Assembly: GCA_964515645.1 (NCBI GenBank)
Contig: CAZEVM010000001.1
Location: forward strand, 1 to 60,071
From: an uncultured Candidatus Peribacteria bacterium
Lineage (GTDB): Bacteria > Patescibacteriota > Gracilibacteria > Peribacterales > Peribacteraceae
DNA: 60,071 bases
Reading direction: 5' to 3'
Shown here: piece by piece, positions 23,733-57,356 of the stretch
Position numbering within the stretch: the stretch's first letter is position 1
Layout of the letters: each line of letters starts with the position of its first letter
Translations under genes and position numbers: made by a program
The notes under the pieces: generated by a model
Database searches by the model: none
What the model saw: the letters and a program-made list of their open reading frames with translations, nothing else
Told to the model about the DNA's origin: nothing

Positions 23733-23750
23733 GTTATACTGTAAAAAGAC

Positions 23751-23841
23751 GGGCGGTTCGCTCAGTTGGGCCCGGTCTTGCGAAGCGAGCCGGCAAATAA
23801 AAAGCATCGCGATGCTACGGCGTGTATTCTTTCACTCAAAC
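23751..23841 (+). repeat. duplicated tRNA-Val 5' half plus conserved GC hairpin (91 nt, directly upstream of tRNA-Val)
   Basis: 23751-23769 GGGCGGTTCGCTCAGTTGG matches 18/19 of tRNA-Val positions 1-19. It is followed by GCCCGGTCTTGCGAAGCGAGCCGGC-AAATAAAAAGC, near-identical to 28071-28106 at the tRNA-Ile locus. Confidence 0.6.
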
Positions 23842-23918
23842 GGGCGGTTAGCTCAGTTGGTCAGAGCATCGAGCTTACACCTCGAGGGTCACAGGTTCGA
23901 ACCCTGTACCGCCCACCA
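23842..23918 (+). tRNA. tRNA-Val (anticodon UAC)
   Basis: Manual cloverleaf: acceptor GGGCGGU/ACCGCCC, anticodon stem UCGAG/CUCGA, loop CUUACAC, T-arm ACAGG-UUCGAAC-CCUGU, CCA encoded. Confidence 0.93.
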
Positions 23919-24121
23919 CACTTCGCTCCCTGCGGGGAGCTTCGCGTGGCTAGCCATCAGTCATTCTTGGTGTACATGCGAAGTGTGCCCCGCGGAGCCG
24001 AAGGCGGAGTGGGGCTGTTCGAGCAGTCGATGGAACGTACAAAAGCCCAGAGGTATGTTGAGATATGCCTGTCGAATTGTTCCCTTACGTATTTTGGAAC
24101 AATTGAGACCAAGATTGTTCC

Positions 24122-24358
24122 ATGTTCTATGTCTATCTTCTGGCATTAGAAAATGGCCAATATTATGCAGGATATACTAAGAATCTCGAGTCTCGCCTGC
24201 AGAGACACGCGAACGGTTTTGTGAGAACAACGAGTCGTATCCATCCGAAGGAGCTTATCTTTTATGCAGCTTTTGTCAGTGAAGCGAAGGCTTTGGACTT
24301 TGAGAAATATCTTAAAAGCTCCTCCGGGTTCGCATTTCGCAATAAGCGGCTGCTTTGA
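24122..24358 (+). CDS. GIY-YIG domain protein (UPF0213-like, 78 aa)
   Basis: ORF 24122..24358. FYVYLLALENGQYYAGYTKNLESRLQRHANG matches the GIY-YIG core. Visibly lower GC than neighbours. Confidence 0.8.
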   Translation: MFYVYLLALENGQYYAGYTKNLESRLQRHANGFVRTTSRIHPKELIFYAAFVSEAKALDFEKYLKSSSGFAFRNKRLL

Positions 24359-27940: not shown

Positions 27941-28162
27941 GGGCCACTCGTTCAGTTGGGCCGACGGCGCGCGAGTGCTGGCGCTATTAAACGAGCGTGC
28001 TCGAACCAACTGATTCACTTCCCTCACGGGGTTCCTTTATGATGCGTACGTGGGCCAGTAGCTCAGTTGGGCCCGGTCTCGCGAAGCGAACCGGCTTATA
28101 AAAAAGCGTGCTCGAACCAACTGATTCACTTCCCTCACGGGGTTCCTTTATGATGCGTACGT
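27941..28162 (+). repeat. two tandem 111-nt units, each starting with a copy of the tRNA-Ile 5' half and ending with the tRNA promoter
   Basis: Unit 1 is 27941-28051 and unit 2 is 28052-28162. The 3' 57 nt are identical (GCGTGCTCGAACCAACTGATTCACTTCCCTCACGGGGTTCCTTTATGATGCGTACGT). Unit 2 starts with 19 nt identical to tRNA-Ile positions 1-19. Confidence 0.8.
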
Positions 28163-28239
28163 GGGCCAGTAGCTCAGTTGGTTAGAGCTCCGGACTTATA
28201 CACCGGCGGTCGATGGTTCAACTCCATCCTGGCCCACCA
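28163..28239 (+). tRNA. tRNA-Ile (anticodon UAU)
   Basis: Manual cloverleaf: acceptor GGGCCAG/CUGGCCC, D-arm GCUC/GAGC, anticodon stem CCGG(A)/(A)CCGG with A31-A39 mismatch, loop CUUAUAC, T-arm GAUGG-UUCAACU-CCAUC, CCA encoded. Confidence 0.8.
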
Positions 28240-28247
28240 TCGCTTTC

Positions 28248-28583
28248 ATGCCCTGGACACCATATTTCGTTGGCGGCAAGGCGCATCCCGGAGTGGAGGT
28301 GGATGCCGATATTCTGTCGGGCGTTCCCGTCTTTTCTGCTCGAATCGCTCCTGGTGGCGGCACGCTGCCGCATCGTCATAGCGGCACCGAAACCATCAGC
28401 ATCCTTCAAGGAGAGGGGCGACTGACCGTCGGAGCCGTGGTTCGAGCGGTGGGACCGGGCGAGACCGTGGTCGTGCCAGCGCTGTCACTCCATCGCCTTG
28501 AGAATGTGGGTACCGACTTTTTAGTGGTATCGGCGCAGTTTGATCCTCCTTTCGCTCAGCAACGCACAACGTTCGATGTTTGA
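28248..28583 (+). CDS. cupin-domain protein
   Basis: ORF 28248..28583. GGGTLPHRHSGTETISILQGEG...GETVVVPALSLHRLEN is a cupin two-motif pattern. It starts 9 nt after tRNA-Ile. Confidence 0.7.
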   Translation: MPWTPYFVGGKAHPGVEVDADILSGVPVFSARIAPGGGTLPHRHSGTETISILQGEGRLTVGAVVRAVGPGETVVVPALSLHRLENVGTDFLVVSAQFDPPFAQQRTTFDV

Positions 28584-51987: not shown

Positions 51988-52022
51988 TATTAATCAGGAA
52001 GCAATCTGTTTAAATTGATAGT

Positions 52023-52595
52023 ATGCCTAGACCACCAGGTGTAAGAGTAAAGGGTTATCTTAGAGAATTAAATATGTGCAGAAGGTTGTGGCAATCCTGG
52101 AATGATTATTTACCAAATGAAATTGACCCTAAACCGAGTAATCCAGCCATTAAATATAAAGTATTATTAGAAGAGATTAGATTTTCATTACTTTTTCGGA
52201 TTGTTGTGCGTTTATATGCCTTAATGGAGCCAGACGAGAATAAATTCACCTTTGGTTATTGGCTTAATACTCTAAATCAAACTCCAAAAGTTAAGGAGAC
52301 TCTAAAAAAATATAAGTTACTTTTAAAATCGGAAGATTTTAAAAAGGTACTTAAAAATCGGCACAACTCCTATGCTCATAACTCAATCAAGGACAAGCAT
52401 TTCGGTCAAACATATAAATCAATGTTTAAGCTAAATGAAGTAATTGAAGAGTTGTACGATCAAATCGTATCGGATGGGCAGGCTGAGGCCATTCCCTGGA
52501 GTGGTGCTGCAGACACACACGTTTGGCATCCCTCAAATTGCCCTGGGGGATTTGAAGAAAATGTGCGTGAGTTCTTTATAAAATTTAACAGCTAA
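52023..52595 (+). CDS. HEPN/Abi-like protein (tentative)
   Basis: ORF 52023..52595. Markedly AT-rich. Helical, with an R-x5-H motif NRHNSYAH reminiscent of Abi-type HEPN (R-x-x-x-x-A-H). Confidence 0.6.
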   Translation: MPRPPGVRVKGYLRELNMCRRLWQSWNDYLPNEIDPKPSNPAIKYKVLLEEIRFSLLFRIVVRLYALMEPDENKFTFGYWLNTLNQTPKVKETLKKYKLLLKSEDFKKVLKNRHNSYAHNSIKDKHFGQTYKSMFKLNEVIEELYDQIVSDGQAEAIPWSGAADTHVWHPSNCPGGFEENVREFFIKFNS

Positions 52596-52628
52596 GATTA
52601 GAGAAGACGCTTCACACCAGCAGCTTAA

Positions 52629-54218
52629 TTAAACAGGCCGCTTCCATCCCCATACAGAATCCCATGTATACCCACTACCCAGTCTTTCAAATTTGGCAGA
52701 CCAATTCAGCCATTCGTTAGCCTTCTTTGTAAATTCCTCAAAATCAGTCATCTCGAAAACTGTTAGCAATAGCTTTCTGTAATCATCATACCATTCCGCA
52801 TTTTGCATTAATGGGATAACTCGTTCTTCATAAAATCGCCCATAATTCGGATATACCCAATGAGGGGCTCCGGGTTTGCCTTCGTCTAATTCCTGCTTCA
52901 TTTTCATGCAAAACAGCATGTTTACCTGGCAGCTTAAGTTTAAGAATTCTTCGTCGTTCAAATTACCCATTATTTCTTTCACAAGAAGATCTTTCTCGTA
53001 ACTCTTCCGCAATCTGTTAAACATGGAATCTGCGCCATGCAAAACATCCGGTGCAAAGAATGCGGCTGTTGACCAAATTCGTGTGGGCCTACGCTGATTG
53101 CCGTCACGCAGTTCTGTTCTGTAATTAATCAAGAAAGACAGTATGTCTCCTTTTTTTTCCTTAAGGGCGAAGATGCAAAAATAGTAGTAGGGGTTGTGCA
53201 GTATTGCTCTCGGAATAGATTTCCACGGAACCATTCGCGATGACGGCGCATGCATCCATAGCGCAGCAACATCTGCGAACTTATCAAGAACCATTTTTAA
53301 GCCATCCTTCCTGTCATATCTCACTGCATACAAACCAATCATAGTCAGGTTCAACATCTCACGCTGCATTTGCTCCACAGCTTCTCCTGCGTTGCTAGCC
53401 TCAGGGCTTTCAGCGGCTATCTTGGTTTCCCAGGTTTGTTTTAGATGAGAGATCTCTCGTTCAACCATGTCTTCCAAATTAAAACGATCGGTATCCGAGA
53501 AACTTCGGAGTTTTGAGACGATCTCTTCCCGAGTTACTGGCGGACGAACCACTCCAGTATGCTTTAGCACTTCAACTGAGCGCGCAGTGTCTTGAGACAG
53601 CTGCTCGGCCGCAGCATCAACATCTTTGCCGTGGCTCTTTTCCTTCACAAGCTCCCAGAACGTTTCCGTGGCGCCGAGCATTTGGGACATTCCCAGCATG
53701 AGGGTTTGTGAGTCGCCCTCAGGCTTCTTTTTGTAATTGTATTTGTGGGACTGTACTGACCAGAGGTGTTCCGTCACGGTACGAATCTGAATCTCACACA
53801 TGTATTCGGCCCCTACGTCTGTGCTGCTCACGACGATGTGGTGCCCCGTGTAGCCGTCCATCGTATCCTCGGGTGTGCTCTCCACGATGCGATAGCTGCC
53901 CTCCAAAAATGGAAGGAGGAGCTCGATCGCGCGTTGGCGGTCAGATCTGCAGTGACAGATCACACGGACCCCGGCAATGTCTTTGATGTCCCTAATGTCG
54001 GAAGTGGCAACGTTCGCAACCTTGGCGTAAACGGACGGGAAGTCCTTAATTTGCGGACGCATCGCGACCAAATCCATACGGGCACTCACCCCGTCGATGT
54101 CGACGGAAAGACGATGCTCCTCTAGATGGGAGCGAATATCGGCCTCGACCTTGCTCTGCAGGGCCCGATAGGACTCTGCGTATTGATCGTATTGCCGTCG
54201 CGCGTCGGCCTCTGTCAT
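52629..54218 (-). CDS. RelA/SpoT-like nucleotidyltransferase (small-alarmone-synthetase/toxSAS-like) fused to ~340-aa unknown C-terminal domain
   Basis: ORF 52629..54218. RPQIKDFPSVYAKV, DIAGVRVICH, DGYTGHHIVV and EIQIRTVTEHLW are the RelA_SpoT synthetase core motifs within the first ~190 aa. Confidence 0.8.
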   Translation of the reverse strand: MTEADARRQYDQYAESYRALQSKVEADIRSHLEEHRLSVDIDGVSARMDLVAMRPQIKDFPSVYAKVANVATSDIRDIKDIAGVRVICHCRSDRQRAIELLLPFLEGSYRIVESTPEDTMDGYTGHHIVVSSTDVGAEYMCEIQIRTVTEHLWSVQSHKYNYKKKPEGDSQTLMLGMSQMLGATETFWELVKEKSHGKDVDAAAEQLSQDTARSVEVLKHTGVVRPPVTREEIVSKLRSFSDTDRFNLEDMVEREISHLKQTWETKIAAESPEASNAGEAVEQMQREMLNLTMIGLYAVRYDRKDGLKMVLDKFADVAALWMHAPSSRMVPWKSIPRAILHNPYYYFCIFALKEKKGDILSFLINYRTELRDGNQRRPTRIWSTAAFFAPDVLHGADSMFNRLRKSYEKDLLVKEIMGNLNDEEFLNLSCQVNMLFCMKMKQELDEGKPGAPHWVYPNYGRFYEERVIPLMQNAEWYDDYRKLLLTVFEMTDFEEFTKKANEWLNWSAKFERLGSGYTWDSVWGWKRPV

Positions 54219-54270
54219 CTGAAGAAGAAGCTACACCACTAATAAGGATGCTGTCACCCCTCCAACGGGA

Positions 54271-54378
54271 AGGTCTCTTCCTAGATCCCCTCTTGCGTCC
54301 GCAGTAGGGTGAAAACGTACCATGTGGGATTCGTTTGTTTTTAGCTGGTGGCCCCAGTCGGGACCAATACGAACCAAT
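54271..54378 (-). repeat. copy of the 75-nt tRNA-Phe-proximal arm plus degenerate tRNA-Phe 3' end (remnant A)
   Basis: 54271-54345 aligns with 56917-56992 (about four fifths identical by eye). 54346-54378 tggtggccccagtcgggaccaatacgaaccaat aligns with the tRNA-Phe 3' end. Confidence 0.65.
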
Positions 54379-54539
54379 TATTATCTGCCTTTGTCAAAAT
54401 GCACAACGACCTTCGTGCGATTGAAGAGATCGTCGGCGTCTGGATCGGTCCAGACGGTCGGCTCATGATTACGGAAATCCACACCTACGGAGGTGACGGG
54501 CCCGAGGGTCGCCGAGATGCCGATAATGGCAAGGCGTGA
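54348..54539 (+). CDS. small junction ORF (63 aa) starting inside tRNA remnant A
   Basis: ORF 54348..54539 (GTG). N-terminus VAPVGTNTNQLLSAFVKMHNDLRAIEEIVGV is homologous to the 51132 ORF. It competes with antisense ORF 54381..54569. Confidence 0.4.
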   Translation: MAPVGTNTNQLLSAFVKMHNDLRAIEEIVGVWIGPDGRLMITEIHTYGGDGPEGRRDADNGKA

Positions 54540-54611
54540 CGCATAGCCCGACTCTACGGGCAAATGCAAGCGTGTCGTGGCATGAGCGTGCCAGGTGGAA
54601 AGTGTTGACGT

Positions 54612-56828
54612 TTATTTACTAGTCATTCCAGCCTGAACCTTTGAAAAAATAGATTGGCAGCGTGCTTGCCATTCAGTATTCCATTTTGTTCTGACTGGAT
54701 TTATAAGTTCTCTAAGATGATTCTTCTGTTTATCGTCAATTTTGCTAAATACCTCTGGACACTCGTCAAAGATTTCATCTAATGACTGAAGTACTTTTTC
54801 TCCTTGCTCAGAGTTTTTCACCCTGTCCATCTCTTGGAGCAATTTCACATAAACGTTGTAGATAAGATTTTGAAATTTACGGTCGTATAAATATTCTTTT
54901 AGCAGCAATAAAGCTGGTACAAATTCTTTGTGATTATCAACAGAAATGTGCCCAATAAATCTACTCAGTGCATCATCGTTTAGGAAAGTAGCTTGCTTTT
55001 CTTTATCTGAAAGAAGAGATATTATTTTTGGTTTGCAAACGAAGTGTTGCTGAATTGCCTTAGCAATTTCTGTTTTTTGATTAGCTGAAAATAGTTGAGG
55101 ATGAGACACAATGTTACTAAAAACACTCACAGCATGGACTTCGTTTCCCACTGTCTCTTGCCCAATTGTCGCCAAGGTATAGCGCTCTGCGAGTTTCTGC
55201 CTTAGGTGAGTATCTAATAGTCGATTATTTAAGACTCTGAAAATTAGCGTTTGGTCCAGAAGCTTGTAATTATCCCAAAGATACTCATCTAATGCATAAG
55301 CAATTGAGTTGTAAAAGTCCTTCTTGCTCGGCTCGAATTCCAATCTATTGAATGAGCCTAATAAAGTTTGAATTAGAGTCGTACAATTCTTCCTTTGAGT
55401 TTTATAAGCCTCAATCAAAGCTGTTGCATATTCAACAACAGCTTCTTTTTTCTTTTCTTTTTTCACTAATTCAATGGATGTCTCTAATTCACCTGTAATT
55501 AATGCAGTACGTAGTTCGTTTTCATGTTTTAAGCCCTTAGCCAGAATAGGCTTTTTAAAGTAAAGATATGTTTCGGCATCTGCCGTTGTAATACGACTTG
55601 TAAGTAACATGAACCTTTTAAAATCTTTTGAGCTTTTTATGGTCTCGATACTTTCGGGGGCGAACCAGTTTTCTTTTAACTCAGCATACTCTTTAGGGAA
55701 TTTATCTCTGAGTACCAGGATCTTTGCCAAGTAGGCGGGATTGTCCTTTATTATTGCAGCAACCTCGGTGTTCAGAGCTATAACAAGCGATGCAATAAAA
55801 TTATTAATGAATTGTTTTATCTCTCTTGGGTTATCAACAAAAGAGCTTTTGATAACTAAAATGACATCTTCATTATTAATTAACTTGTTAATTTCCCCAG
55901 TTTTTTCCAAAAGACTTTCAATGTATTTGTCCAAGTCGGTGTTGATAAATTCAGGTGACCAAATAGCTAGATTAAAAATCTTCCTCAAATACTCGGACGG
56001 GTTCATTGTGTCTATCAGGGTTTGCCTAAGCATTTCGTAGTGGCAAGGAACGAGGAAAATTATTTTTTTGTCTTCCATTCCATCTGTGTTGATTTCTAGA
56101 AAAGTTTTTAAAGTCGAAAGCATCTCGATCGCTACTTCACGCTCAACTCGGTCTAGGTTATCGACCACAATTATTACCTTACTCTCTCCCGAGTCGTTAA
56201 TTATTTTTGAAAAACATTCTTCGAAGAGTTCTGGTGAATCAATTTTATTCTTTGTGCCGTTAATCGCTGTGATAGATATAAAGTTTTTTGCATCGTCAGG
56301 GAGCAGTAGCTCCCTCGCAACGAAGCCAATTGCTGCTAAGAGAAATAATATTATTGATGCCGTGGTCCATTCGGGCATAAAAGTCCGAACAGCCATCCAT
56401 AACAACAATGTAATTGGGAGAAACAATTGTAACTTTAAAACACTCCACCGAATTTGAGGGCGCTCACCAATTTGTTCTGTGGTGTCGTAGTAAAATTGCT
56501 GTATTAGTTTATTAAGATAGCCCTTTCCAAGGTTTAAGTCTTTCGCTATCTGCATTAGAAGTTGCCTCTGTAATGAATCTTTCTGATACTTCCAGCAATC
56601 AAATTCAACCATCTTTGCGTTTGATATTCCCTCGTCCTTTAGCGCCTTTATGATTGTACTTTTCCCCGTTCCCCATGCGCCAAATAGGCCAATGGTATGA
56701 ACGCAACTTTCATTCTCCAAAATTGATTTAATCGAAGGAGCAATATGTTTGTGATAGAAGTCAAAATACCCATCGTCTGTGGAACGAATAGGAGCGTCTC
56801 TTAGAAATTTAAAGTCGGGCGGCGACAT
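54612..56828 (-). CDS. KAP-family P-loop NTPase with two inserted TM helices
   Basis: ORF 54612..56828. Walker A GAWGTGKST, TM pair LQLFLPITLLLWMAV / IILFLLAAIGFVA, Walker B IIVVDNLDR. AT-rich. Confidence 0.85.
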   Translation of the reverse strand: MSPPDFKFLRDAPIRSTDDGYFDFYHKHIAPSIKSILENESCVHTIGLFGAWGTGKSTIIKALKDEGISNAKMVEFDCWKYQKDSLQRQLLMQIAKDLNLGKGYLNKLIQQFYYDTTEQIGERPQIRWSVLKLQLFLPITLLLWMAVRTFMPEWTTASIILFLLAAIGFVARELLLPDDAKNFISITAINGTKNKIDSPELFEECFSKIINDSGESKVIIVVDNLDRVEREVAIEMLSTLKTFLEINTDGMEDKKIIFLVPCHYEMLRQTLIDTMNPSEYLRKIFNLAIWSPEFINTDLDKYIESLLEKTGEINKLINNEDVILVIKSSFVDNPREIKQFINNFIASLVIALNTEVAAIIKDNPAYLAKILVLRDKFPKEYAELKENWFAPESIETIKSSKDFKRFMLLTSRITTADAETYLYFKKPILAKGLKHENELRTALITGELETSIELVKKEKKKEAVVEYATALIEAYKTQRKNCTTLIQTLLGSFNRLEFEPSKKDFYNSIAYALDEYLWDNYKLLDQTLIFRVLNNRLLDTHLRQKLAERYTLATIGQETVGNEVHAVSVFSNIVSHPQLFSANQKTEIAKAIQQHFVCKPKIISLLSDKEKQATFLNDDALSRFIGHISVDNHKEFVPALLLLKEYLYDRKFQNLIYNVYVKLLQEMDRVKNSEQGEKVLQSLDEIFDECPEVFSKIDDKQKNHLRELINPVRTKWNTEWQARCQSIFSKVQAGMTSK

Positions 56829-56916
56829 GACAAGAAAAGTTTATACCTCTTCTCTGAAATTCAAAAAACTGCCGCCAATTAGAAGTCCTTCGATAAACTA
56901 ACCCTGCCCACTGGCC

Positions 56917-56992
56917 GGTCTCTTCCTTGTTCCCTCTTGCGCTCGTAGTAGGGTAAAAACGTACAATGTGGGATACGTTTGCGATTTTTAGC
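56917..56992 (-). repeat. 75-nt arm immediately 3' of tRNA-Phe (includes tRNA terminator hairpin)
   Basis: The minus strand reads ...GCAAACGTA-TCCCACATTG-TACGTTTTTAC.... Duplicated at 54271-54345. Confidence 0.65.
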
Positions 56993-57068
56993 TGGTGGCC
57001 CAGATCGGGATCGAACCGATGACACCTCCCTCTTCAGGGGAGTGCTCTACCAGCTGAGCTACCGGGCC
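56993..57068 (-). tRNA. tRNA-Phe (anticodon GAA)
   Basis: Manual cloverleaf of GGCCCGGUAGCUCAGCUGGUAGAGCACUCCCCUGAAGAGGGAGGUGUCAUCGGUUCGAUCCCGAUCUGGGCCACCA. Loop CUGAAGA, CCA encoded. Confidence 0.95.
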
Positions 57069-57190
57069 ACTGGTACCGTTGCTATGCCCAAGTATACGGT
57101 GGGCCCGAGGACTATACCAAGATCGTCCTTTGTCGAGAAGGGTGGATTTTGGCGGATGGGACAGTAGAATGCGGTCGCTTTGGGCACTAC

Positions 57191-57206
57191 GGGTGTCGCT
57201 CAGCTG
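57191..57206 (+). repeat. degenerate copy of the tRNA-Ala 5' half, 90 nt upstream of tRNA-Ala
   Basis: GGGTGTCGCTCAGCTG versus tRNA-Ala GGGGCTGTAGCTCAGCTG (15 of 16 positions after a 2-nt gap). Confidence 0.35.
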
Positions 57207-57280
57207 CCGCCGAGCCCTTCCGGGCGAGGAGCGAATCAGAAAGGCGCCTGCGGTAGATCTCCGAGGTACACTGACATCAT

Positions 57281-57356
57281 GGGGCTGTAGCTCAGCTGAT
57301 AGAGCGCCGCATTCGCATTGCGGAGGTCGAGGGTTTAAATCCCTTCAGCTCCACCA
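57281..57356 (+). tRNA. tRNA-Ala (anticodon CGC)
   Basis: Manual cloverleaf: acceptor GGGGCUG/CAGCUCC with G3-U70, anticodon loop UUCGCAU, T-loop UUUAAAU, CCA encoded. TACACT 8 nt upstream. Confidence 0.93.

Follow-up and report, generated by a model that had tools for sequence, protein, structure and literature searches.

Units upstream of tRNA genes in the window

We analysed a 60,071-nt window (contig CAZEVM010000001.1, positions 1 to 60,071; assembly GCA_964515645.1) of an uncultured Candidatus Peribacteria bacterium, which gave a view of about 5% of the source genome. At its tRNA-Ile(UAU) gene, the window carries an array of two tandem units of 111 nt each (27941-28051 and 28052-28162), placed on the + strand directly before the intact, CCA-encoding gene at 28163-28239. 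Each unit opens with a copy of the first 19 nt of tRNA-Ile, followed by a GC hairpin and a promoter-like block, as a preliminary description made from the sequence alone had outlined. The results bore out the shared 57-nt 3' part, which was recovered as two exact copies (27995-28051 and 28106-28162; 0 mismatches, chance expectation 0). The repeat search returned an 88-nt direct repeat with a period of exactly 111 nt and 95% identity, as well as a 24-nt family with three copies spanning the tRNA-Ile 19-mers; the Ile array was not among the tandem repeats reported by Tandem Repeats Finder. The 19-mer GGGCCAGTAGCTCAGTTGG (tRNA-Ile nt 1-19) was located at 28052 and 28163 with 0 mismatches and at 27941 with 3, and was found in none of the shuffles. 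ARAGORN and Rfam RF00005 (68.5 bits) called a tRNA only at the last copy (28163-28239) and left the upstream copies uncalled, as expected from the earlier reading.

Unit 1 starts 10 nt past the stop codon of the upstream Nudix gene. Its fragment (27941-27959) is a decayed copy of tRNA-Ile nt 1-19 (16/19) without a promoter or -10 hexamer of its own, and is orthologous to the fragment GAGCCACTCGCTCAGTTGG of a related locus, L002 (loci of other genomes carry L numbers here). The type A hairpin that follows (GCCGACGGCGCGCGAGTGCTGGCGC, 27960-27984) is an old version, orthologous to the hairpins of L002 and L012; relative to L002, its substitutions convert Watson-Crick pairs to G.U pairs on the + strand only. 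After an A/T-rich tract (TATTAAACGA, 27985-27994), the 57-nt block (27995-28051) contains an inverted copy of the D-arm (27999-28013), a -35-like TTCACT (28014-28019) and a -10-like TATGAT (28038-28043), which ends up 8 nt ahead of the next G.

Unit 2 begins with an exact copy of tRNA-Ile nt 1-19 (28052-28070). Its type B hairpin (GCCCGGTCTCGCGAAGCGAACCGGC, 28071-28095) is identical at 23 of 25 positions to the hairpin of the tRNA-Val unit (23770-23794), and both mismatches retain pairing as + strand G.U. This recurrence had been noticed before, as had the unrelated but equally long (25 nt) hairpin of unit 1. The A tract of unit 2 (TTATAAAAAA, 28096-28105) is closer to that of the tRNA-Val unit (AAATAAAAA) than to the tract of unit 1, and hairpin and A tract together represent the tRNA-Val module, with about 47 nt in common, GCTCAGTTGG included. 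The 57-nt block (28106-28162) repeats the inverted D-arm copy (28110-28124), TTCACT (28125-28130) and TATGAT (28149-28154).

The promoter of the unit 2 block is predicted to be the proximal promoter of tRNA-Ile; like all promoters considered here, it was recognised as a consensus match (9/12). Its two hexamers agree with those named earlier, while the spacer between TTCACT and TATGAT is 18 nt rather than 17. The segment CCAACTGA, for which a pairing had been proposed, proved to be the end of the 15-nt inverted D-arm copy, which is complementary to tRNA positions 12-26 at 14 of 15 positions. A terminator scan found no intrinsic terminator at the units; the hairpins lack a U tract, and in nearly all units an A tract follows the hairpin. 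Since no U tract follows the hairpins, transcripts from upstream promoters should read through into the tRNA, and short products ended by the canonical route are not expected. The proposal that every unit fires a short transcript was not upheld, as the unit 1 fragment also lacks a promoter; functional tRNA-half-like small RNAs are a conjecture.

Units are present at three of the five tRNA genes of the window. The tRNA-Val unit (91 nt, 23751-23841, + strand) lies 4.3 kb away from the Ile array and sits directly behind the canonical terminator of the upstream gene. It consists of a fragment of nt 1-19 (23751-23769; 18/19), hairpin B' (23770-23794), an A tract, the palindrome AGCATCGCGATGCT (23803-23816), in which tRNA nt 24-30 are followed by their own complement, and the -10 hexamer TATTCT (23825-23830), before the intact tRNA-Val(UAC) (23842-23918; ARAGORN, Rfam). 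The tRNA-Ala(CGC) unit (92 nt, about 57189-57280, + strand) comprises the fragment GGGTGTCGCTCAGCTG (57191-57206), which is a shortened copy of the 5' end of the gene, a tandem-G.A hairpin (57207-57232), an A-rich tract and a TACACT -10 hexamer (57267-57272); the intact gene follows at 57281-57356 (ARAGORN). A covariance model of the hairpin matched this unit with 43.4 bits (E = 5e-8). Within the window, the Ala hairpin has the canonical G.A form, and the Ile and Val hairpins are derived forms that have lost the G.A motif. Nothing comparable was found upstream of the tRNA-Gln and tRNA-Phe genes.

Distribution, anatomy and turnover among relatives

To describe the distribution of the units, we scanned one genome from each of 185,579 species with the gap pattern GCTCAGTTGGGCC-N70-100-GCTCAGTTGG. 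The scan returned 20 loci, 15 of which were in metagenome-assembled genomes (MAGs) of Peribacteria/Peregrinibacteria and showed the full architecture; of the other five, one was in a Levyibacteria MAG, two were Nitrospira loci that differed in layout and two were coincidences in coding sequence. The architecture is thus nearly confined to Peribacteria/Peregrinibacteria, and it is clade-wide rather than specific to one locus. Comparison of the locus and a wider search, both suggested in the preliminary description, showed variation of unit copy number among relatives; the feature is not local, with units also at tRNA-Val and tRNA-Ala. With the window included, units occur at ten tRNA species (Ile-UAU, Ile-GAU, Val-UAC, Val-GAC, Ala-CGC, Ala-UGC, Ala-GGC, Pro-GGG, Pro-CGG and His-GUG), and every unit uses the first 19 nt of its own tRNA.

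The exact unit 2 hairpin had no match in genome or viral collections. A metagenome scan with the hairpin-only pattern GCCGCCGAGC-N5-8-GCGAGGCGC gave 120 matches, attributable to chance in high-GC coding DNA. In viral scans, the architecture pattern gave 0 matches and the D-loop plus hairpin pattern 45, all of them chance matches in coding sequence. Neither Rfam nor the searchable literature yielded a description of the architecture, in line with the earlier statement that no described element of this kind was known to its author, and Rfam 15 gave no family at E <= 1 for the units of the window and of six related loci. A small cassette of this kind is apparently undescribed.

The common order of parts on the + strand is a -10-like hexamer, tRNA nt 1-19, the hairpin, an A-rich tract, a palindrome, a second -10-like hexamer 8-27 nt before the gene, and the intact tRNA. 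The fragments of nt 1-19 lie 91-113 nt upstream of the intact genes of the ten tRNA species, and the cassettes, at 91-111 nt, contain no open reading frame (ORF). The hairpin is about 25 nt long, follows G19 immediately and always begins with GCC (or GTC); GCUC (positions 10-13) can therefore pair with G18-G19-G-C as a mini D-arm. In its usual form, it has a 4-bp outer stem, a tandem G.A/A.G, a 3-4-bp inner stem and a 4-nt loop.

The alignment of the hairpin in 11 units revealed clear covariation: 96% of cells were paired, 5 of 7 pairs had changed on both sides, and 0 of 500 shuffles reached this level. None of the slid registers of the alignment came near the observed pairing. The tandem G.A/A.G is nearly invariant, the exception being L030, which has AA at the 3' pair. 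The G.U pairs and G.A mismatches fit folding of the + strand only, which is the RNA sense and the non-template DNA strand. In 232 kb of related DNA, the covariance model of hairpin and flanks matched only sites linked to tRNA genes. The palindrome combines a sense copy of tRNA positions ~24-31 with the complement of ~31-12 into which it runs. Its antisense segment reaches 18/18 in L018 and 17/17 in L035, and the sense and antisense segments follow the lineage-specific substitutions of their own tRNA.

Identical substitutions recur in independent fragments (window 23759 and 27949; L002, L021, L030, L035, L019 and L025). A change of A9 to C yields TCGCTCAG, and U8 to G makes the perfect palindrome GAGCTC; in the L019 and L025 fragments, CTGT is replaced by its reverse complement ACAG. 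These recurrent substitutions look like quasi-palindrome template-switch mutation.

We reached syntenic loci in relatives through homologues of the Nudix gene with 83, 74, 65, 63 and 62% identity. At the tRNA-Ile(UAU) site, the window and L018 each carry two units, L002 carries one unit with a hairpin orthologous to that of unit 1, L012, L202 and L204 retain decayed remnants, and L001, the closest relative, has essentially nothing, its unit having been lost. At the tRNA-Val site, the unit is present in the window and L001, and the site is empty in L002, L012 and L202. Intact and decayed states also occur within one genome: the JAGOUB MAG has intact unit(s) at another tRNA (L017) and a decayed one at tRNA-Ile (L013), and the CAZYNU MAG has intact units at L025 and L030 and a decayed one at tRNA-Ile (L202). 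The stacked layout was seen in the independent MAGs of L018, L019 and L028, and single units in >15 assemblies. The tRNA-Pro units of L017, L021, L036 and L030 are orthologous, though their flanks no longer align by blastn. Their fragments still match the tRNA at 17-19 of 19 positions (18-19/19 for the three Pro-GGG units), compensatory substitutions have altered their hairpins, and the -10 hexamer upstream of the fragments is conserved (TTGTATCATGC).

Proposed insertion after G19 and competing explanations

The anatomy of the units, their clade-wide distribution, the covariation of the hairpin, the occurrence of empty, occupied, stacked and decayed sites, and the ancestral promoter on the Val fragment are established. 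That promoter is the TATACT hexamer at 23735-23740 (+ strand). The window fragment is preceded by TATACT-gtaaaaagac, orthologous to TATACT-tcaaaaaac, the sole promoter of unit-free tRNA-Val genes in relatives such as L012, and the intact tRNA-Val of the window is served by a different -10, TATTCT. Because the Val fragment has the ancestral promoter, it represents the original start of the gene, and the DNA from G19 to the rebuilt gene is the newcomer. The stacked pairs of the window and L018 have unrelated hairpins and a 3' block (50-57 nt) that is identical or has 1 mismatch; their distal fragments are decayed, and in the two arrays that allow age to be judged, decay affects the distal unit.

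Two further loci contain tRNA genes that are themselves interrupted. In L034 (Levyibacteria JAYRIM010000008.1, 5139-5478), an outer tRNA-Val(GAC) is split after G19 by an insert that begins with a G.A-type hairpin, carries a TATTCT -10 hexamer and holds a complete, different tRNA-Val(GAC), which has the 12-nt inverted repeat TATTCTGAAAAT on its two sides. Beyond the insert, the outer gene continues until another copy of the hairpin module, 43/63 identical, breaks it a second time; the final acceptor strand of the outer gene still pairs with its 5' end. In L024 (Peribacteraceae DASZVA010000017.1, 3687-3878), a second tRNA-His copy starts 18 nt past the intact one and contains a 47-nt hairpin plus A tract after G19 and a 77-nt insert in the T loop. 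The exons match the intact copy at 33/33 and 16/16 positions in L024 and at 26/26 in L034, and removal of the inserts in silico brought back the ARAGORN calls at both loci. A third locus, L032 (Peribacteria CAZXIV010000018.1, 266-5775), holds a 5.5-kb island of ORFan genes that begins where tRNA-Ala ends (3' side), with 21 nt of that end repeated directly at its borders. The far end of the island is a chimera of tRNA-Ala positions 9-19, the local cassette hairpin and tRNA-Ala positions 57-76. Its 478-aa protein of the phage family phrog_30194 was considered as a common recombinase and rejected, since it has no homologue in the other loci.

Among the explanations raised in the preliminary description, we favour, with moderate confidence, serial insertion directed at the D-loop: a small cassette would have restored the promoter and nt 1-19 each time, long ago for unit 1 and recently for unit 2. 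The empty sites, the ancestral Val promoter, the decay of distal units and the hairpin-led inserts after G19 argue for it, as do the clade-wide spread over many tRNAs, the constant junction after G19 with its covarying hairpin, the stacked units that differ in hairpin and the Klebsiella precedent described below. A gene-less cassette of about 90-110 nt would enter the tRNA gene directly after G19 of the D-loop, carrying the strand-specific GC hairpin with its A tract, the palindrome (tRNA 24-31 and the complement of ~31-12), a sigma-70-type promoter and a fresh copy of nt 1-19. The hairpin would close a mini D-arm with G18-G19. The gene would be rebuilt downstream of the cassette, and the old promoter and first 19 nt would be stranded upstream as a dead fragment. 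Stacking may arise by repeated insertion, or by unequal exchange between the 19-mers or the 76-88-nt repeats. In the window, unit 1 would be the old insertion, common to relatives and with fragment and hairpin degenerating, and unit 2 a recent one with the Val-type hairpin module. Judging by L034, an entire replacement tRNA gene may come with the primary insert, and recombination with the resident 3' part may then collapse it to the compact unit. The insertion itself would be an active recombination event by a putative recombinase, and the conserved hairpin could serve as a recombination structure or as an insulator against read-through from the displaced promoter.

Several observations weigh against this account. 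The cassettes have no ORF, and their self-mobility is putative; no recombinase, transposase or full-size parent element was found beside any unit or in viral contigs, no recombinase lies between fragment and gene at any locus, and no autonomous element turned up in 232 kb of related loci or in IMG/VR. The larger L034 insert likewise lacks a recombinase. A larger element around tRNA-Val or tRNA-Ile marked by 3' tRNA fragments was also considered; none was found. The tRNA-Pro units persist with compensatory hairpin changes although their flanks cannot be aligned, a pattern that resembles purifying selection by the host on a function more than it resembles a scar. The 3' block of the new unit, both in the window and in L018, copies the resident one, and local duplication with gene conversion could look identical. 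Cassette insertion also leaves the origin of the tRNA-derived palindrome unexplained, and most of the sample of about 25 units was ascertained by a pattern that demanded an intact D-loop decamer (GCTCAGTTGG+GCC).

More tentatively, the units may be miniature, gene-less mobile cassettes of Peribacteria and some other members of the Candidate Phyla Radiation (CPR) that use D-loop-specific recombination to replace the promoter and 5' end of a tRNA gene or the whole gene, with the tandem-G.A hairpin and nt 1-19 co-opted as a leader RNA that controls or proof-reads tRNA expression. If the insertion reading is right, small cassettes that bring a promoter would regularly reshape tRNA genes from the 5' side throughout a bacterial class. 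Bacteria have no described counterpart of such tRNA-gene turnover and promoter replacement, which would mirror the familiar 3' integration of prophages. The combination of tRNA 1-19, tandem-G.A hairpin and A tract offers a searchable signature of a structured, conserved element outside Rfam, and L024 and L034 provide concrete D- and T-loop interruptions of tRNA genes in CPR genomes. Fragments and interrupted copies can mislead tRNA annotation, and the repeats can break MAG assemblies.

Insertion and a selected leader or small RNA are not mutually exclusive. As the main rival explanation, we consider it unlikely that the units are functional cis-acting leaders or small RNAs, in which a mimic of the tRNA 5' end (nt 1-19), the tandem-G.A hairpin, the A tract and an anti-D-arm segment regulate, insulate or quality-control the downstream tRNA; it could act through a competing pairing with the D-arm and the 3' acceptor strand of the tRNA, or through a protein that all units bind. 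The hairpin covariation, the near-invariant G.A/A.G and the restriction of G.U pairs to the RNA-sense strand are consistent with such a role, as is the conserved -10 upstream of the tRNA-Pro fragments; fragments stay near-identical to the tRNA 5' end while the rest of the unit diverges and the flanks become unalignable, and the sense and antisense segments track their own tRNA. Read-through RNAs are predicted to fold with a large advantage over shuffles (z = -3.2 in the window, -6.1 in L035); in these folds, distal nt 1-7 pair with the 3' acceptor strand of the tRNA and the antisense segment pairs with the proximal D-arm. However, a duplicated copy yields such folds by construction, and isolated whole units fold no better than shuffles. 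The read-through folding may thus reflect a leader or insulator role, or be a by-product of duplication and concerted evolution through unequal exchange. Units are moreover absent or decayed at orthologous genes of close relatives with no visible replacement, two of the five window tRNAs have none, the type A and B hairpins of the window lack the G.A motif, and some fragments cannot pair like the tRNA (e.g. GGGGACAGA versus GGGGCTGTA in L019 and L025). No Rfam family matches, and the leader's support comes from sequence comparison and predicted folds.

Neutral local rearrangement appears quite improbable. Here, slippage or unequal crossing-over would have duplicated the promoter and 19 nt, the hairpin would belong to the upstream gene as its terminator or 3' stabiliser, and the copies would be kept alike by concerted evolution. 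The 88-nt direct repeats, 95% identical and with an exact 111-nt period, fit this scheme. Unit 1 and its L002 and L012 counterparts lie directly behind the Nudix stop codon, with the hairpin persisting even where the fragment has decayed, and at an orthologous site the fragments of L025 and L032 disagree in four positions, a sign of possible gene conversion. On the other hand, the breakpoint after G19 is the same at ten tRNA species and always comes with a related hairpin, whose model matches nothing behind ordinary genes in the 232 kb of related DNA. The hairpins lack the U tract of a terminator, and the Val unit of the window already stands behind a canonical one. Simple replication slippage, an option raised earlier, cannot explain stacked units with a common 3' block and different hairpins; the promoter of the Val cassette was not copied from the resident promoter, and the architecture is enriched in one clade far above any background.

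Still less probable is an intervening sequence in tRNA genes, removed from the RNA with or without re-ligation as in the insertions of CPR rRNA genes, so that fragment and downstream parts are still used as tRNA. L024 and L034, where complete tRNA genes are broken after G19 and near the T arm, with exons identical to the intact copy and intact acceptor and T stems, speak for this explanation. However, no splicing signal was identified, although no search was aimed at bulge-helix-bulge motifs; a group I intron would be longer than these inserts, which also have no Rfam matches. The "intron" of the window would include a promoter as well as a second copy of exon 1, mutations in several fragments would keep the acceptor stem from forming, and an intact copy always lies next to the interrupted one.

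Least credible, with a very low probability, is an assembly artefact in which the tandem 111-nt units would stem from a chimeric or expanded repeat. The contig is of metagenome type and its repeats are 88 nt long, but the two hairpins are unique and unrelated, the fragments have diverged differently, independent MAGs show the stacked layout, and single units recur in >15 assemblies.

Other candidates were rejected on the structure of the units. A canonical terminator is excluded by the missing U tract. For a minus-strand terminator or promoter, a small palindrome plus T run and the spacing of TTGGTT...TATAA are inconsistent among units; an UP element does not fit because the distance from A tract to -10 varies. 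Against K-turn, box C/D and hammerhead motifs, the units have no 3-nt bulge and no boxes, an invertible promoter between inverted D-arm copies conflicts with the single orientation at all loci, and no hidden tRNA containing fragment and hairpin was found on either strand.

Flanking genes and comparison with known systems

The gene content of the window is chromosomal (L9, SecG, MsrB, copper ATPase), and the nearest named relative of the Nudix protein is in a Candidatus Peribacteraceae MAG. Within 28240-28583, a cupin ORF adjoins the 3' end of tRNA-Ile. It is real (Cupin_2, E = 3e-14), although its start is uncertain, as ATG 28303 has a stronger Shine-Dalgarno sequence than ATG 28248. A co-transcript of tRNA-Ile and cupin is plausible from the sequence because no terminator lies between them. 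A word search found no homologue of the cupin gene, which is lineage-specific; relatives have a cold-shock gene or other ORFs at that position, and the DNA downstream of tRNA-Ile is therefore a variable spot as well. The segment gtatcctgaccaca ahead of msrB bears a faint likeness to a tRNA 3' end.

Right after tRNA-Val, about 150 nt (23919-24065) share ~95% identity with L001, while nearby spacers are far more diverged. The segment is GC-rich with evident helices (cacttcgc...gcgaagtg; ccccgcggagccgaaggcggagtgggg) and has no Rfam match. It is followed by a 78-aa ORF with only a GIY-YIG domain (24122-24358). The whole block (23919-24358) was found only in the two genomes with the Val cassette, those of the window and L001, and a motif similar to its GCGAAGGCGGA also occurs in the T-loop insert of L024. 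At 52000-57070, beside the 3' end of tRNA-Phe (minus strand), GC falls to 0.42-0.47. The ORFs of this region encode a HEPN AbiU2-like protein (52023-52595), a 529-aa RelA/SpoT-domain protein (PADLOC PDC-S33) and a 738-aa KAP nucleoside triphosphatase (QatA/PifA-like), and the region is probably a defence island integrated at tRNA-Phe.

As a rule, DNA that integrates into a tRNA gene restores its 3' part, and Williams (2002; listed among the references of PMC9897764) reportedly placed the sublocations of prophages and islands at the anticodon loop, the T loop and the 3' end. Cis-mobilizable elements (CIMEs) are non-autonomous remnants flanked by attachment sites that can accrete in tandem. With both, the units share incoming DNA that rebuilds the gene, a partial tRNA copy at the far end, tandem arrays, and remnants that may lack recombination genes. 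In contrast to classical 3' integration, they are mirrored to the 5' side, need a promoter, measure about 100 nt and have no autonomous partner that we could find. Judged as elements that target tRNA genes, they show a direct repeat of a partial tRNA gene, an intact gene rebuilt at one end and empty sites in relatives; the cassettes encode no integrase, having no ORF.

Repetitive extragenic palindromic sequences with their associated transposases (REP/RAYT) and insertion sequences of the IS200/IS605 family use short imperfect hairpins, do not duplicate their target and are not tied to tRNA genes. The units resemble them in their strand-specific, imperfect GC hairpin, whose structure and mismatch are kept while the sequence drifts, in GTTGG at its foot and in the many copies per genome. 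They differ in that a stretch of the tRNA, 19 nt or longer, is duplicated (76-88 nt in the window), and their "foot" is the tRNA D-loop itself. The junction GTTGGGC likewise fits the GTTRRRY of integron attC sites, but it is the D-loop; no ORFs and no IntI were seen, the polarity of hairpin and flanks is wrong, and attC was rejected. At tyrT of E. coli, 178-bp tandem repeats each contain the last 19 nt of tRNA-Tyr. Here too, tandem repeats beside a tRNA gene carry a short terminal tRNA piece; unlike the units, the tyrT pieces are from the 3' end and lie downstream at a single locus, with no conserved hairpin or promoter and no clade-wide occurrence.

Operons for rRNA and tRNA have tandem P1-P2 promoters with boxB/boxA leader elements. 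The units share two promoters about 100 nt apart and a hairpin followed by a boxA-like segment, TGCTCTAACCAAC against the boxA consensus TGCTCTTTAACAA (28110-28124, with equivalents in L018, L002 and L035). As a boxA/Nus leader, this segment was rejected: it is the exact antisense of the cognate tRNA (12-31), and its likeness to boxA is probably coincidental because it varies with the tRNA.

The disrupted tRNA genes of archaea and red algae are split, permuted or interrupted by several introns, and are processed through bulge-helix-bulge motifs by a splicing endonuclease and ligase (PMC3978253, PMC3728597). Non-canonical interruptions are shared with L024 and L034, in the D- and T-loops; the units, in contrast, always have an intact copy beside them, and no splicing signal was recognised.

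In Klebsiella, arg2 islands integrate upstream of tRNA-Arg with a repeat made of the 5' acceptor half together with D stem and D loop, which the authors described as a novel D-loop sublocation with a distinct integrase clade, I.d (10.1101/2020.11.02.365908). The islands are kb-sized and carry a tyrosine integrase, in contrast to the units, which are 91-111 nt long, gene-less, equipped with a hairpin and a palindrome, spread over many tRNAs, clade-wide and stackable. As no integrase or parent element was found, the units act like this D-loop system without being members of it. In both, the insert lies upstream of an intact gene, the repeat covers about nt 1-19, and the incoming DNA supplies the promoter and the 5' part.

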